From a virus (lineage: Duplodnaviria > Heunggongvirae > Uroviricota > Caudoviricetes): 36,227 nt of DNA. The stretch lies in IMG/VR virus record IMGVR_UViG_638341087_000024. One strand, given 5' to 3'. Shown in pieces: positions 2,736 to 8,874 of the stretch; positions within the stretch are counted from its first letter, which is position 1, and the number at the start of each line of letters is the position of its first letter. The translations under genes and the position numbers were made by a program. The notes beneath the pieces were generated by a model that was given only the letters and a program-made list of their open reading frames with translations, made no database searches and was not told the origin of the DNA.

Positions 2736-3074
2736 ATGCTGAAGCAACGCCGTAATTTTCGTATCGGAACAGAACGCCACGCTAACCGTTTCACTACCAG
2801 TGCATCACGCAGCAACATCCGCTACAGCCTGAGTGATACACACGCAACGCCGGATGGCTACCCAGTAAAACAAATCGGCGAGCACGTCTGGCTGATTGAG
2901 AAAGCTGGAATCGTGATCCACAAATGCCCACGCAATCCGTTTACCGGAAACCGCATTTTTGCATTGAGCTGCGGCGACAATCAATTCGGGCAGGATTTCA
3001 CATTATACGAAGCACTTCGCACGGTTGATCGTCTGCTTCGTGGGCAAAGTTTTATTAAACAGGCTGATTTATAA
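2736..3074 (+). CDS. Hypothetical early protein
   Basis: 112-aa ORF in the early rightward operon with coding-like composition. Confidence 0.5.
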   Translation: MLKQRRNFRIGTERHANRFTTSASRSNIRYSLSDTHATPDGYPVKQIGEHVWLIEKAGIVIHKCPRNPFTGNRIFALSCGDNQFGQDFTLYEALRTVDRLLRGQSFIKQADL

Positions 3075-3084
3075 CAGGTGCTTT

Positions 3085-3363
3085 ATGACCAAAGAGCATG
3101 CACAAGGTGTATTTATCCGTTTTATTGATTTTCGCGGTGAACTGTTATTACGCGCATCAGCCATTGACGGAGTTGTTCCATCCGAAAAAAACGCAGCTAC
3201 TTACGTTTATCTGAACGGTACGCGCCTGACTGTGGAGCTTCCGTACCAGACCGTACGAGAAATCATTAGCGAAGCTGAAAAGGCACGTCAGGTTAATGGC
3301 GATGAACCATATATCGAAATTATTTGTATGGATTCAGAAGCTGAAATTCAGAAAGCAGATTAA
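3085..3363 (+). CDS. Hypothetical early protein
   Basis: In-frame ATG at 3085 (MTKEHAQGVFIRFIDFRGELL...), 92 aa; the longer track ORF from 3025 overlaps the previous gene. Confidence 0.5.
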   Translation: MTKEHAQGVFIRFIDFRGELLLRASAIDGVVPSEKNAATYVYLNGTRLTVELPYQTVREIISEAEKARQVNGDEPYIEIICMDSEAEIQKAD

Positions 3364-3374
3364 AGGGCGTTGCG

Positions 3375-3617
3375 ATGGGCAAAGAATATAAAACTCTCAT
3401 TAACAAAGCACTTGAACGATTTTATTTTCGCTTAAGTGCATCAGGCGCTCATGCTGAACGTGCAGCTCGTGACTCATTGACCAGGGCAATCCGGAGTTTG
3501 TATGACGTCGCTTTTTACGCTGATGATCTGGATGCACTTAACGAACTTTCCGAGCTGATCTGTGCCGCAGAATGCGGGGAACATATTGAACCGTATAAGC
3601 TGGGGAATATCGCATGA
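3375..3617 (+). CDS. Hypothetical early protein
   Basis: 80-aa ORF, tightly spaced in the operon. Confidence 0.5.
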   Translation: MGKEYKTLINKALERFYFRLSASGAHAERAARDSLTRAIRSLYDVAFYADDLDALNELSELICAAECGEHIEPYKLGNIA

Positions 3618-4463: not shown

Positions 4464-4726
4464 CCATTCTGGACTACATCGCTACTCATCCGGGGTGTAG
4501 CGGCGGAGAGATCGCCGCAGCACTGAATACTCCAACCACAGCCATTAATGCTGAGTTACGCCAACTTTGGCGCGGCGGCTTAGTCATCAGAACAAACCGC
4601 AGCACAGGTGGTCGCGCTCGCAAAACTGGAGGCCAGGCTTCTTACCACGTAAACCCGATGCCGTTCGGGTGTAGCAATCCACTTACTCACATGTTTAACC
4701 AGCTACTGAAGGAAGCCAGAACATGA
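4460..4726 (+). CDS. Putative winged-helix DNA-binding protein
   Basis: 88 aa; N-terminal segment (ILDYIATHPGCSGGEIAAALNTPTTAINAELRQLWRGGLV) resembles MarR/ArsR-like winged HTH. Confidence 0.45.
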   Translation: MTILDYIATHPGCSGGEIAAALNTPTTAINAELRQLWRGGLVIRTNRSTGGRARKTGGQASYHVNPMPFGCSNPLTHMFNQLLKEART

Positions 4727-5022
4727 GCACCATCAACCACCAGAAGCTACGCGAACTGGCATTTGCCCTGCAACGAATGGCAACACCTCAAAAATTACTG
4801 GCATTTCGCGCAATGCTCTCGCCGTCTGCTGTGCTGGCATTGCTGGATGAGCTGGAGCACGCCAGAACCACGGCTCCTGCCATTCGCCTGACGCTCCATC
4901 ATGAAATCGCTGATTTCTGCGCGACATTGGAGGCGCCAGGCGAACCGGAAACGCCGGAAGCAATACAGCAAGAGCTGCTGCAACGCATTGACAAGGTTTT
5001 TGATTTTTTTCTGAACCAGTAA
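4723..5022 (+). CDS. Hypothetical early protein
   Basis: 99-aa ORF coupled to the upstream gene. Confidence 0.5.
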   Translation: MSTINHQKLRELAFALQRMATPQKLLAFRAMLSPSAVLALLDELEHARTTAPAIRLTLHHEIADFCATLEAPGEPETPEAIQQELLQRIDKVFDFFLNQ

Positions 5023-5140
5023 GAAACCAGAACATGCACACACAAAAAAACCGCTTGCCATGCCGCAATCAGTCAGGTTACATTTCCGCTGCACCCCATA
5101 AAACGGGTGCCGGGATTTCCACCCCGCTGACTAGCAAAGC

Positions 5141-5169
5141 GCACAACCGCGCCAGCGGTTTTTTTGTGC
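5141..5169 (+). terminator. Candidate intrinsic terminator in an early-region non-coding stretch
   Basis: AACCGC-GCCA-GCGGTT hairpin followed by TTTTTTGTG; outer GCACAA/TTGTGC can extend the stem. Confidence 0.45.
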
Positions 5170-5344
5170 GTACCGTATCGCCACGTCTTTTTCGCGTCAG
5201 AATTATGGTGGGGCGTATGGGGCCGACTTCGGTCGGGCCGGGTTCTTTGCTAGCCGGTTGTGGAAACCCTGTACGTCTCACCACCCCGAGTTTTCCACCT
5301 CTGGATGGTGAGTTTTTAAAACTTACTAGCAAAGAGGCCACACC

Positions 5345-5575
5345 ATGGCAAACCGCAAACAGCATCGCGCTATCGCGGAGCGTCGTCACATCCAGACTGA
5401 AATCAACCGCAGACTTTTCCGCGCATTCCGCGTCGCGCAAATCATGCACATCAATATGCTGCATGAACGCAGTCACGCACTATCGAACAGCTATTCCGCC
5501 TCTGTTTTCAGCTATCTGGCGGATGATCTGCGCGAGCTTCAGCAGCTCATCCAGCAGCAAAACAAACTCCATTAA
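5345..5575 (+). CDS. Hypothetical small protein
   Basis: 76-aa ORF with basic, helical-looking N-terminus; follows a 320-bp structured non-coding region. Confidence 0.4.
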   Translation: MANRKQHRAIAERRHIQTEINRRLFRAFRVAQIMHINMLHERSHALSNSYSASVFSYLADDLRELQQLIQQQNKLH

Positions 5576-5647
5576 TTCCTGTTCCGGGCCTTTCCTGCAC
5601 CTTGCGGCGGGAGGCCTTCGCACATCTGTAGTAAAGAGAATTGCAGC

Positions 5648-6037
5648 ATGATTGACACTCATGACTTCACAAGATGGGTGCGCACACAGGACACCCGTCT
5701 GGCTCCCGTTCTTCAGGGATTATTTGATCTCTACATCCGTGGTCGTGACAACAGAGCACGCACCACAAAACCAGAGAATGCAGACACCCTTTATTTCACA
5801 GTAGACGACTGCTACCGCGTGGACTTCACACCACACGGGCTGGCGTTGCACTGCCTGACACCACACGGCGAATCACTACTGGCGTATTACGACTCCCCGG
5901 CCTCCGTATTTGCGGCAATGCTGGCGCATCGCACTGCTGGCGGGTGTGCCTCGCTGAGTGAATACACCGCTGAATTTAACCGCCTTTCCACCCTCTTCTC
6001 GCAGGAGTGGCAGCGCGTGACGGGATACCAGCCATGA
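5648..6037 (+). CDS. Hypothetical protein upstream of replication gene A
   Basis: 129-aa ORF; stop overlaps the A start (ATGA at 6034-6037). Confidence 0.5.
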   Translation: MIDTHDFTRWVRTQDTRLAPVLQGLFDLYIRGRDNRARTTKPENADTLYFTVDDCYRVDFTPHGLALHCLTPHGESLLAYYDSPASVFAAMLAHRTAGGCASLSEYTAEFNRLSTLFSQEWQRVTGYQP

Positions 6038-8874
6038 GTGAGTTTGCATGGAGCTGGAATGAACCACGGCCAGCCATTGATCCAGCCAGATTTACGGAGC
6101 ACAGGCAGGAAACTGAAACCGACCTGCAACGCGCCATCCGTTACTACCTTGAGGCGGACAAAAGGGCACAGAAAGAACAGGAAGCGAAGGAAGAAGCCTT
6201 TTTCGCACAATCCGCCATGGGTAAAAAACTCATGGCATCCCTTGAGGAAGCCGGACAGCGTGAAAAGCTGGCACAGAGCATCATCAGTAAGCGCCGGGCA
6301 ACAGAACAAGACCCGGTAGCCCGTGCCTTTGCCACACTGAAGGCGCTTCCCGTTTATCTGCGAGAACCTCTGAGCCGCCACCTCTCTTTCCTGCGCAAGA
6401 AGCAGGAAGCCGATCGTCAGAAAGGCAAAAAGAGCTGGCAGGCGGAACGCTATGCACGCGGAACCCTGCGCAAAATATTCGAACGTCTGGAGCGCACCGA
6501 CAGCCGCTGGCTGACACCGGGTTATCGCTCCCTTGCCGGACGCGAACGCCTGGACGATTTGGTTTACCTGCCGCAGCTCAACAAACACCAGATACAGACG
6601 CTGGCCACCATGACGGCGGCGATGTTCAGCAGCACCTTCGAAAAACTCTGCGATGGCTTTGGCGCGACTGATGGCGAACTGACCATGGATGTAACGCTGA
6701 AGGCGTATCAGATGCTGGCCCGCATGGCGTTACACCTGCACGCCATGCCTCCACATTATGACGCACTGACAACAGACAAAGACCGGAGGAACGAACCGGA
6801 CACGGAGCTGCTGCCGGGCGCAATCCTTCGCCTGACCTGTGCGGAATGGTGGAAACGCAAACTGTGGCTGTTACGTTGCGAGTGGAGAGAAGAACAACTC
6901 CGCGCCGCCTGTCTGGTTTCCAGAAAAACATCACCCTATCTGAGCCAGGACGCGTTAAGCGAGTTTCGCGCACAGCGCGAGAAAACACGCGATTTCCTGA
7001 AAAGTTTCATGCTGGAAAATGAAGACGGGTTCACGATTGATCTCGAGACGGTGTATTACGCGGGAGTAAGTAACCCGGTTCACCGTAAGGCAGAAATGAT
7101 GGCCACCATGAAGGGACTGGAACTTCTGGCCGAAGCCCGTGGCGACAGAGCGGTGTTTCTGACTGTCACCTGCCCGTCAAAATACCACGCAACAACGGAG
7201 AACGGTCATCCGAACCCCAAATGGAACGGGGCCACCATGCGCGACTCCAGCGATTACCTGGTTAACACGTTTTTTGCGGCGGTCCGCAAAAAACTGAACC
7301 GCGACGGTCTGCGCTGGTATGGCATCCGCACGGTGGAGCCTCACCATGACGGCACTGTACACTGGCATATGATGGTCTTTGCACATCCGGACGAGATTGA
7401 AACCATCGTGTCCCACGTCTGCGATATTGCCATTCAGGAGGACCGCCACGAGCTGGGCGATGACATAACTCCGCGTTTTAAGGCGGAGTATGTCGACGGC
7501 TCAAAAGGCACACCAACCAGCTACATCGCCACCTACATCGGAAAGAACTTGGACAGCCGCGCCGTGGATGGCATCGACCCGAAAACGGGCAAGCCACGCG
7601 TTGACCACGAAACCGGAAAATCAATGGCCGAGAGCGTGGAACGCGCCATCGGCTGGGCGCGCCTTCACCGGGTCCGCCAGTTCCAGTTCTTTGGTATCCC
7701 CTCCCGTCAGGTGTGGCGTGAACTGCGCCGCCTTGCCAGCCAGATGGCACGCAACCCGGAAGGCCCGCAACGGCTGAAGGATAACGCAATGGATGCGGTA
7801 CTCGCTGCCGCTGATGCCGGATGTTTTGCCACCTACATAGAGAAACAGGGCGGCGTACTTGTTCCACGCAAGAACTACCTGATTCGCACCGCCTACGACC
7901 TTGCAGATGAGCTGAACGATTACGGCGAGCAGAGTGTACAGATTTACGGGATCTGGTCGCCGCTCATCGGGGAGTCTTCCCGTGTGTGCACACATCCGGA
8001 TAACTGGAAACTGGTAAGACGTAAACCTGAAGCAGAAGACAGCGCCCGCGAAAATGGTTTTGACCTTCAGGGCGGCCCTGCCGCCCCTTGGACTCGTGGC
8101 AATAACTGTCCCCGTGTACAGGAAACAGACAACAACGGGACAGAACAGCCGGAAGAACGGCCAGCACCGTGGCCGCAGCTTCCTGACGGCATTGAAGTGA
8201 ATGAATGGATGCACTCACTGAAACGGCACGAACGCCGGGCGCTGATGCGTTCGCTGCGTGACAAACAGGCCAAAAACAGCAGCGATGAAATGCAGAACTG
8301 GACGCAGAGCCGCAAACAGCCGCGGCCTTTGCCTGATAACCACGAGTTACTCGCTAAAGAATGGCGGGAGTCTGCTGAATCTCTCGGCCTGCATATCGGT
8401 GAACAGCAGATGCTGCACCTGTTACGGGGTGGCAGTCTGTACGTTGACGGCAGCATCATTGCACCGCAGGGATTTGAAATTGTACGCAAACCGGATACCC
8501 GCCCGGACAGCCGAATCACGCAGCTCTGGCAACGCCTGAGCCGTAATCACGGCGTAAGCAGCACGGAGATCCGCCATAACCCGGTCGCCAGCTATCTGGA
8601 ACAGCTGGGGGCATCAGACCCTGAAGCCGCCGCACGCCTGGCATCCACACTTCAGCAAGACCAGAACACCATGAAAACACCCGTTACCGTGCTTTCTGAC
8701 ATGCTGCGCGCCATCCGCGACGCAGAGCACGCACAGAGAATCAGTGAAACCACTGAACGCGCCCGCCGCAAAGCATACCTGCTGCGGGGTGGCCTGACCA
8801 GTGGAAACAAAAAACAGACAGAAACGGGATTCACAAATCCCGTAAATGAGCAAAAAACGCGCCGCGATATATGA
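6034..8874 (+). CDS. A: Rolling-circle replication initiation endonuclease, P2 gpA family
   Basis: HUH-type motif (TVHWHMMVFAHP) and tandem-tyrosine motif (YIATYIGKN) typical of P2 A / phiX174 A-type initiators. Start taken at ATG 6034 (MSEFAWSW...). At about 946 aa it is longer than P2 gpA as recalled. Confidence 0.85.
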   Translation: MSEFAWSWNEPRPAIDPARFTEHRQETETDLQRAIRYYLEADKRAQKEQEAKEEAFFAQSAMGKKLMASLEEAGQREKLAQSIISKRRATEQDPVARAFATLKALPVYLREPLSRHLSFLRKKQEADRQKGKKSWQAERYARGTLRKIFERLERTDSRWLTPGYRSLAGRERLDDLVYLPQLNKHQIQTLATMTAAMFSSTFEKLCDGFGATDGELTMDVTLKAYQMLARMALHLHAMPPHYDALTTDKDRRNEPDTELLPGAILRLTCAEWWKRKLWLLRCEWREEQLRAACLVSRKTSPYLSQDALSEFRAQREKTRDFLKSFMLENEDGFTIDLETVYYAGVSNPVHRKAEMMATMKGLELLAEARGDRAVFLTVTCPSKYHATTENGHPNPKWNGATMRDSSDYLVNTFFAAVRKKLNRDGLRWYGIRTVEPHHDGTVHWHMMVFAHPDEIETIVSHVCDIAIQEDRHELGDDITPRFKAEYVDGSKGTPTSYIATYIGKNLDSRAVDGIDPKTGKPRVDHETGKSMAESVERAIGWARLHRVRQFQFFGIPSRQVWRELRRLASQMARNPEGPQRLKDNAMDAVLAAADAGCFATYIEKQGGVLVPRKNYLIRTAYDLADELNDYGEQSVQIYGIWSPLIGESSRVCTHPDNWKLVRRKPEAEDSARENGFDLQGGPAAPWTRGNNCPRVQETDNNGTEQPEERPAPWPQLPDGIEVNEWMHSLKRHERRALMRSLRDKQAKNSSDEMQNWTQSRKQPRPLPDNHELLAKEWRESAESLGLHIGEQQMLHLLRGGSLYVDGSIIAPQGFEIVRKPDTRPDSRITQLWQRLSRNHGVSSTEIRHNPVASYLEQLGASDPEAAARLASTLQQDQNTMKTPVTVLSDMLRAIRDAEHAQRISETTERARRKAYLLRGGLTSGNKKQTETGFTNPVNEQKTRRDI

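Follow-up and report, generated by a model that had tools for sequence, protein, structure and literature searches.

A probable IsrK-C4 RNA immunity module in the early operon of a P88-like prophage

Two tandem RNAs and their complementary segments

We analyzed a 322-bp stretch (positions 5023-5344, + strand) of a 36,227-nucleotide viral DNA (Caudoviricetes; IMG/VR record IMGVR_UViG_638341087_000024), which we refer to as a whole as the window. The stretch lies between a gene of 99 amino acids (aa; 4723-5022) and a gene of 76 aa (5345-5575), and the window itself is a P88-like Peduoviridae prophage with 95-96% identity to P88 and its relatives over the conserved parts. An Rfam scan yielded two full-length matches in tandem on the + strand: isrK (RF01394) at 5091-5165 (65 bits, gathering score 50, E value 2 × 10−13, model positions 1-77 of 77) and C4 antisense RNA (RF01695) at 5201-5288 (78.8 bits, gathering score 45, E value 1.4 × 10−15, model positions 1-87 of 87). 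Matches to STnc410 (4987-5035, E = 0.39) and Ms_IGR-4 (E = 6.6) were far under threshold and were disregarded. Because every feature noticed here belongs to one known system, the stretch is very probably an IsrK-C4 RNA immunity module, the equivalent of seqA-CI in phage P4, placed in the early operon of a P88-like (P2-family) prophage. A preliminary description of this DNA had proposed RNA folding and an Rfam search of the region and had suggested a small RNA or RNA-encoding locus; folding and search recovered two structured RNA families, and with both above their gathering scores the suggestion held.

The IsrK-like, or P4-SeqA-like, small RNA (5091-5165, +) comprises a first hairpin (5091-5110), a second hairpin (5111-5126) with segment a1 (UUUCCAC, 5116-5122, +) in its loop, a linker containing segment b1 (CUAGCAAAG, 5131-5139, +) and an intrinsic terminator (5145-5165, +; AACCGC-GCCA-GCGGUU and then a U run). 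This is the terminator-like hairpin with a T-run that had been noticed before, with its stem at 5145-5160, a GCCA loop and seven T at 5159-5165. A consensus scan found a putative internal sigma-70 promoter (TTGCCA, 18-nt spacer, TACATT; 5055-5084, +) whose end is 7 nt short of where the IsrK match begins, implying a transcription start near 5091. The putative promoter is nearly invariant in 57 unique sequences of P88-like relatives (among loci L128-L210), which we compared by alignment. P4, N15 and two Stx phages each have a comparable −35/−10 pair equally placed in front of their isrK matches.

The second RNA (5201-5288, +) resembles C4, the CI RNA of P4 and the CA RNA of N15. It has a tRNA-acceptor-like basal stem (5206-5222 paired with 5267-5283) followed by A-CCC (5283-5286), a first hairpin (5223-5236) with a UUCG loop and a second hairpin (5237-5258). 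Segment b' (UCUUUGCUAG, 5244-5253, +) occupies the loop of hairpin 2, and segment a' (GUGGAAA, 5260-5266, +) forms the single-stranded joint that connects hairpin 2 to the basal stem's 3' arm. The minimum free energy (MFE) fold of these 88 nt is the Rfam structure (−44.1 kcal/mol, z = −3.4), and none of 200 shuffles was equally stable. Hairpin 1 (CCGAC-UUCG-GUCGG, inside GGCCGAC..GTCGGGCC at 5221-5239) is the UUCG-type hairpin reported in the preliminary description, whose coordinates were 1-4 bases off for this and the other named features. Two in-frame ATG codons, 12 nt apart at 5205 and 5217, lie at the 5' end of the C4-like RNA; the first was kept in 11 of 11 P88-like relatives checked, and the second was often ACG or ACA instead.

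The 9-mer CTAGCAAAG, of which three copies had been noticed, one of them inverted, indeed has exactly three copies in the whole window (5131-5139, +; 5245-5253, −; 5326-5334, +), where dinucleotide-preserving shuffles gave an expectation of 0.23 and none of 100 reached three. The first copy is b1 and the inverted one is the loop of C4 hairpin 2. We also found a second triplet that had been overlooked, in which two copies of TTTCCAC (5116-5122 and 5292-5298) flank their complement GTGGAAA (5260-5266). The 7-mer by itself is not above chance (12 matches in the window, 5.5 expected); the triplet draws its meaning from position and covariation. Together, the triplets make the middle of the IsrK-like RNA (a1, b1) complementary to a' and b' of the C4-like RNA downstream, as is characteristic of isrK. 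The remaining copies lie beyond the C4-like RNA: a2 (UUUCCAC, 5292-5298, +) in the loop of a further hairpin, and b2 (CUAGCAAAGAG, 5326-5337, +), which contains the third 9-mer and overlaps the Shine-Dalgarno sequence (AAGAGG, 5332-5337) 7 nt before the ATG at 5345. Pairing of a' with a2 amounts to 7 bp, and pairing of b2 with b' to 11 pairs including one G-U (predicted duplex −21.3 kcal/mol). Everything that a sequence can reveal of RF01695 and RF01394 was thus found at the locus, namely the fit to both models, the pairing segments, the terminator and a downstream target at a ribosome-binding site.

We next scanned viral contigs for the conserved C4 core, gathering diverse modules with 59 distinct a'/b' combinations, and scored exact complementarity of at least 7 nt with permuted loop-target pairings as a control. 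Complementarity was found in 92% of the combinations for a1, 83% for a2, 58% for b1 and 71% for b2, compared with typically 2-4%, and at most 11%, of permuted pairings. In the P88-like set, the 57 sequences contain 21 a/b combinations, built from at least six a segments and at least 12 b segments that have been recombined, and all three copies shift together. In almost every case a1 and a2 are identical and complementary to a', as are b1 and b2 to b', and the few exceptions keep their pairing through G-U. Scaffold and promoter are almost invariant in this group, with variation limited to six a/b islands, and b2 ends in or beside the Shine-Dalgarno sequence of the first downstream gene in nearly all relatives. 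The combination in the window (a = TTTCCAC, b = CTAGCAAAG) is unique among the 57; P88 has the same a with a different b (CAACTACAG). Since all three copies covary in a way that keeps Watson-Crick complementarity, the copies of CTAGCAAAG are, on this comparative evidence, RNA-RNA pairing sites and not protein sites. The pattern matches the published logic of P1/P7 c4 heteroimmunity (PMC12197685), and so much a/b diversity among such close relatives suggests that the specificity of RNA immunity is under strong diversifying selection.

Folding further identified a terminator-like element (5277-5316, +) made up of the hairpin that carries a2 in its loop (5277-5310) and a run of five U (U5). The 5' arm of this hairpin, CUCACCA (5277-5283), doubles as the 3' arm of the C4 basal stem, and because this arm is shared, the C4 fold and the full a2 hairpin are mutually exclusive. 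A hairpin presenting a2 is kept, with altered stem sequences, in 28 of 49 diverse modules versus 2 of 49 shuffled controls; the U run after it is confined to the P88-like group. As modeled, the a2 hairpin and U5 resemble an intrinsic terminator, which could form in full only while the C4 scaffold is unfolded, and the earlier suggestion of an attenuator was borne out to the extent that folding found this attenuator-like alternative hairpin. The MFE structure of the full read-through RNA (5091-5360; −106.7 kcal/mol, z = −3.8) combines cis pairing of a1/b1 with a'/b' and the terminator hairpin, which fits "structure A" of the Gifsy-1 paper (PMC4825925).

The regulated gene, the read-through frame and the genomic setting

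The gene whose Shine-Dalgarno sequence lies under b2 (5345-5575, +) encodes a 76-aa homologue of the P4 derepression protein epsilon, an anti-repressor, according to Pfam and BLASTP. Its product passed the cutoff of Pfam PF25738 "Derepression" only narrowly (27.9 bits, cutoff 27; P4 epsilon scores 170 bits) and shares 27% identity with P4 epsilon (BLASTP E value 6 × 10−7). P4 epsilon is the protein that derepresses the helper phage P2. Among the relatives, 5345-5575 carries a coding signature, with 38 synonymous variant codons versus 11 and 15 in the other frames, and the homologue is labelled "derepression protein" in RefSeq and in the P88 record. NCBIfam had no model for either the epsilon-like protein or P4 epsilon, and a profile search of genome contigs with the epsilon-like alignment returned 3 loci, too few for added power. 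With this gene, the module stands upstream of an anti-repressor or immunity-relevant operon, which is the context of C4 RNAs; in other modules the gene under b2 encodes an Ant/Rha-type anti-repressor, a P4 kil-like ORF (open reading frame), or an epsilon-like or other small protein.

A 205-aa ORF (5034-5651, +), present in the ORF list and close to a match with the Pfam family "Ash," reads through the entire module and is an analogue of P4 eta by position and frame. Its ATG lies 11 nt beyond the preceding gene's stop codon and ahead of the putative internal promoter (−35 at 5055). From there it spans both RNAs and then the epsilon-like gene, in a different reading frame from that gene, before closing with an ATGA that overlaps the next start codon. 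The frame is open in 56 of the 57 relatives; its start there always precedes the internal promoter, 11 nt past the stop of whichever upstream gene is present, and its terminal ATGA always coincides with the next gene's start, even if that gene is a different one. Chance alone would leave 5034-5344 open with a probability of about 0.054, and the stretch shared with the epsilon-like gene with one of about 0.06. Across diverse modules the scaffold frame, which is also the frame of P4 eta and of the N-terminal "extension" of annotated Stx anti-repressors, is open throughout the module in 31 of 52, versus 4 and 8 for the other frames. Synonymous changes in the 205-aa frame showed no excess, at 13/110 in the module and 11/108 across the epsilon overlap, compared with 38/106 in the epsilon frame. 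Given this substitution pattern, we rejected the ORF as a conventional protein gene and kept its conserved openness as a separate lead. The preliminary description had found no convincing ORF here; this was right in that the frame shows no protein-level constraint, but it missed the conserved openness and a score close to the Pfam Phage_ASH cutoff. Likewise, a coding gene conserved across the region, which was to count against an RNA locus, exists only in the formal sense of a frame that is kept open and is Ash-like, without constraint on a protein.

The translation of this frame scored 25.9 bits against Pfam PF10554 Phage_ASH, just below the gathering score of 26, and some records annotate an "ash family protein" at this place. 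Phage_ASH was presumably built on the old P4 ash/cI ORF, and that coding sequence (CDS; positions 3041-3457 of locus L126) overlies the CI RNA of P4. What is annotated as an "Ash family" protein may thus in many cases be the RNA module in translation and not a conserved protein. In P4, according to the part of PMC10111431 that summarizes Forti et al. 1999, translation of eta from the upstream promoter prevents termination, so that transcription escapes immunity. By analogy, translation of the 205-aa frame might override immunity for early-promoter transcripts in an eta-like manner, a reasonable idea that we put forward tentatively.

Records of Stx phages extend the anti-repressor gene across the RNAs. 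In Stx2a_1447 (L002, 2146-3297) and mEp460 (L003, 2141-3292), the start of a 383-aa CDS annotated "antirepressor" or "Rha" precedes the isrK match by about 360 nt, and the CDS crosses both RNAs; the Shine-Dalgarno sequence under b2 implies a product of 181 aa instead. In these two phages the annotated N-terminus either extends the protein in an eta-like manner or reflects a wrongly called start. The RefSeq E. coli records have no feature in the same 322 bp. In P88, the hypothetical protein AIZ95121.1 (L001, 3056-3244, minus strand) is annotated opposite the IsrK and C4 RNAs and is probably a spurious call.

After the epsilon-like gene come orf129 (5648-6037, +; 129 aa, PHROG 3237), whose ATG overlaps the TGA of the 205-aa ORF, and then a P2 gpA-type replication gene (6007-8874, +). 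Searches of Pfam and NCBIfam with orf129 gave nothing, and a relationship to P4 orf151 was rejected for want of similarity. The upstream genes include an integrase, a 114-aa helix-turn-helix repressor (HTH_3; 2038-2382, − strand) and a Cox-like gene. Related elements were found in 1402 of 5426 complete E. coli genomes, about a quarter. Similarity to P88 and to the Citrobacter phage Shae_phiSM starts only at about 5034-5041 (query positions 19 and 12, respectively), and the gene upstream of the module is Ead/Ea22-like in the window and encodes an SPFH-domain protein in P88; since similarity starts at this point and the upstream gene differs, the left edge of the module is a recombination boundary at the ATG of the read-through ORF. 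A P88-like module with its epsilon-like gene (89% identity) also occurs on a 226-kb contig (L130, NZ_JBQPOM010000071.1) titled Vagococcus sp. WN89Y, a Firmicute, and this is probably contamination or a mislabelled assembly. In Stx2_131990, a match to the ALIL pseudoknot (L004, 4566-4682, minus strand; 120.9 bits) lies about 2 kb downstream of the C4 module. We take this pseudoknot to be a frameshift element of insertion sequences, and the site probably holds an insertion sequence unrelated to the module.

Proposed mechanism and competing readings

By analogy with the known systems, the module could work as follows. The predicted internal promoter (5055-5084) would be constitutive and would make the short IsrK-like RNA, with most transcripts stopping at 5165. 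Reading through the terminator would give a C4 precursor, from which trimming would leave a stable product of about 77 nt. This C4 RNA would, in a lysogen, pair with a2/b2 of any transcript reaching that point and block translation of the anti-repressor, and the pairing would also limit transcription into orf129 and the replication gene A, either by Rho-dependent polarity or through the a2 hairpin/U5 terminator. Carrying decoys of both targets, the IsrK-like RNA may titrate C4 or refold it in cis, so that repression is relieved. The short a and b segments would then set immunity specificity.

Several points weigh against this account. The module in the P88-like group is known from sequence alone, and published mechanisms vary within the family, from a translation block in P1 through termination in P4 and N15 to cis refolding with IsrK as activator in Gifsy-1. 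The epsilon-like assignment stands on a borderline Pfam score and the 27% identity given above, and the internal promoter is a consensus match only (9/12), albeit a conserved one. Finally, the MFE structure of the full read-through RNA lacks the C4 scaffold, so a free, trans-acting C4 is not guaranteed. A translation block in trans, Rho-dependent polarity and cis attenuation are all candidates for the dominant route.

It is possible that the module is chiefly a cis-acting attenuator on the Gifsy-1 model, in which cis pairing of a1/b1 with a'/b' frees CUCACCA so that the a2/U5 terminator forms, the short IsrK acts as a trans activator and processed C4 is unimportant as a free repressor. The MFE of 5091-5360 shows exactly this cis pairing with a full terminator hairpin, the a2 hairpin that shares the C4 stem arm is conserved, and the Gifsy-1 genetics read that way (PMC4825925). 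We nevertheless consider such a purely cis-acting module rather unlikely, because the C4 scaffold is strongly conserved (78.8 bits), the RNAs of P1, P4 and N15 that match the same Rfam model are reported as immunity factors, c4 is listed as trans-acting (PMC12197685) and CI is a stable processed immunity RNA (PMC10111431). Co-transcriptional folding also favors the local C4 fold, and the placement of b2 on the Shine-Dalgarno sequence in nearly all relatives would be needless for a pure terminator switch.

Two readings remain. The first, in which the functional product is the 205-aa Ash-family protein (5034-5651) and the RNA features are incidental, is favored by a frame open in 56 of 57 relatives, a Phage_ASH score of 25.9 bits against 26 and the label "ash family protein" in some records; yet there is no synonymous excess in the module or in the epsilon overlap, amino acids encoded by the a/b islands vary freely, no property of a protein explains the triple complementary covariation, and the old P4 ash/cI ORF overlies an RNA whose processed form is named as the immunity factor (PMC10111431). 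We regard this as very unlikely. Operators for an early DNA-binding protein, whether Cox-like or MarR-like, had been suggested by three copies of CTAGCAAAG within 200 bp, one of them inverted, with DNA-binding genes upstream. However, the sites sit in RNA loops and on a Shine-Dalgarno sequence, within two Rfam-matched RNAs, and the middle copy is a reverse complement in an RNA loop. More than 50 sequences occupy these positions in relatives, always with complementarity between the middle and outer copies, and they do not change in step with the nearby DNA-binding proteins; the b segment of P88 differs although its early region is otherwise about 95% identical. The complementary triple covariation led us to reject the protein-operator reading, which has next to no chance of being correct, and since the copies are RNA-RNA pairing sites, the mobility shift assays with Cox-like or winged-helix proteins proposed in the preliminary description would be misdirected.

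An IsrK-C4 immunity module therefore remains our preferred reading of the stretch. It is a new, ordinary copy of a known RNA switch and reveals no new kind of mechanism; mechanisms of this class were already known in the 1990s. Our literature search found no paper describing the module in P88-like or other P2-family helper phages, and although any Rfam run can find it, current annotation has missed it. Recognizing it gives a testable account of how the anti-repressor, and perhaps the replication gene, is controlled in P2-like prophages, lets immunity type be read simply from the sequence of the a and b segments, and links helper phages to P4-like satellites through the same RNA system and the same epsilon family. 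The interest is modest and lies in a P4-like cassette with an epsilon homologue in a helper-type phage, in the many specificity combinations, and in the conserved out-of-frame read-through ORF. A more far-reaching picture, doubtful as a whole, would give helper-type phages a rearranged P4-style RNA layer beside the C repressor that gates the epsilon-like anti-repressor and, by polarity, gene A. Here C4 folding and cis pairing would toggle the a2/U5 terminator, translation of the 205-codon frame would override immunity and couple to the next gene through ATGA, and the a/b combinations (21 in 57) would serve as a heteroimmunity code among co-resident P2-like prophages and P4-like satellites.

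Relation to known immunity systems

The tandem isrK and C4 pair was also found with Rfam in P88, two Stx2 phages, mEp460, P4 and N15; the RNAs of P4 are named seqA and CI, and the second RNA of N15 is named CA. Barquist 2013 names an "IsrK-C4 immunity system" and equates it with seqA/CI of P4 (PMC3632133), and Hershko-Shalev et al. 2016 describe IsrK as a structural homologue of the P4 SeqA RNA and the processed downstream STnc1160 as CI-like (PMC4825925).

The isrK-orf45-anrP region of the Salmonella prophage Gifsy-1 contains the founding member of RF01394. IsrK of Gifsy-1 has its own promoter and a leaky terminator, its middle pairs with a conserved RNA downstream, and an anti-repressor gene follows; supplied in trans, IsrK lifts downstream translation about 140-fold, and compensatory mutations lie at the equivalent pairing positions (PMC4825925). 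Gifsy-1 lysogens express both IsrK and the C4-like STnc1160 at high levels (PMC7067206). The ATGs at 5205 and 5217 in the window correspond to the "orf45" starts that were mutated in PMC4825925. The stop of the short Gifsy-1 orf45 overlaps the start of anrP, whereas the corresponding frame in the window is 148 codons long, extends across the epsilon-like gene without sharing its reading frame and terminates at the start of the following gene. The carriers differ as well, Gifsy-1 being lambdoid and the window P2-like. N15 (CA RNA, antA-C) likewise has both Rfam families in tandem upstream of an anti-repressor operon, but its downstream genes are gp31 and Ant and its frame-0 ORF starts only at the AUG at the C4 5' end.

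With the immI region of P1/P7 (c4-icd-ant), the window shares the Rfam C4 RNA, which we also found in a 93-kb, probably P1-like, viral contig (L020), where C4 stands alone with no isrK match above threshold. The logic in both systems is that a' and b' pair with a2 and b2 where the first gene of an anti-repressor operon, transcribed from the same strand, has its ribosome-binding site, and differences in specificity amount to heteroimmunity (PMC12197685). A 2025 review describes c4 as blocking ant translation at the ribosome-binding site (PMC12197685). The regulated proteins are Icd and Ant in P1 and an epsilon-like protein in the window. Processing by RNase P was reportedly documented for P1 by Hartmann et al. 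in 1995; other papers on P1 are those of Citron and Schuster in 1990 and Biere in 1992.

The immunity region of P4, in which CI RNA is treated as the immunity factor (PMC10111431), runs in the order PLE, seqA, CI RNA, seqC, kil/eta, epsilon, orf151 and alpha. Its isrK (L126, 2933-3010) and C4 (L126, 3118-3205) matches lie in the same order as in the window, its targets stand both upstream and downstream of the antisense RNA, and an epsilon-family gene and later a replication gene follow the RNAs. In P4, too, the same scaffold frame holds a long ORF that opens ahead of the internal promoter and runs through the RNAs (mechanism: PMC10111431). The two differ in that P4 is a satellite and the window a complete P2-type helper-like phage, in that the first gene under b2 is kil in P4 and epsilon-like in the window, and in the replication gene, which is the alpha primase in P4 and gpA-type in the window. 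The window's read-through ORF is unlike that of P4, being out of frame with the regulated gene, overlapping all of it and ending on the next start; the window also has the a2 hairpin with its U5 tail, and its orf129 is unrelated to P4 orf151. Among the systems compared, the order in the window, with IsrK, C4, an epsilon-like gene, an ORF and a replication gene, is closest to that of P4.

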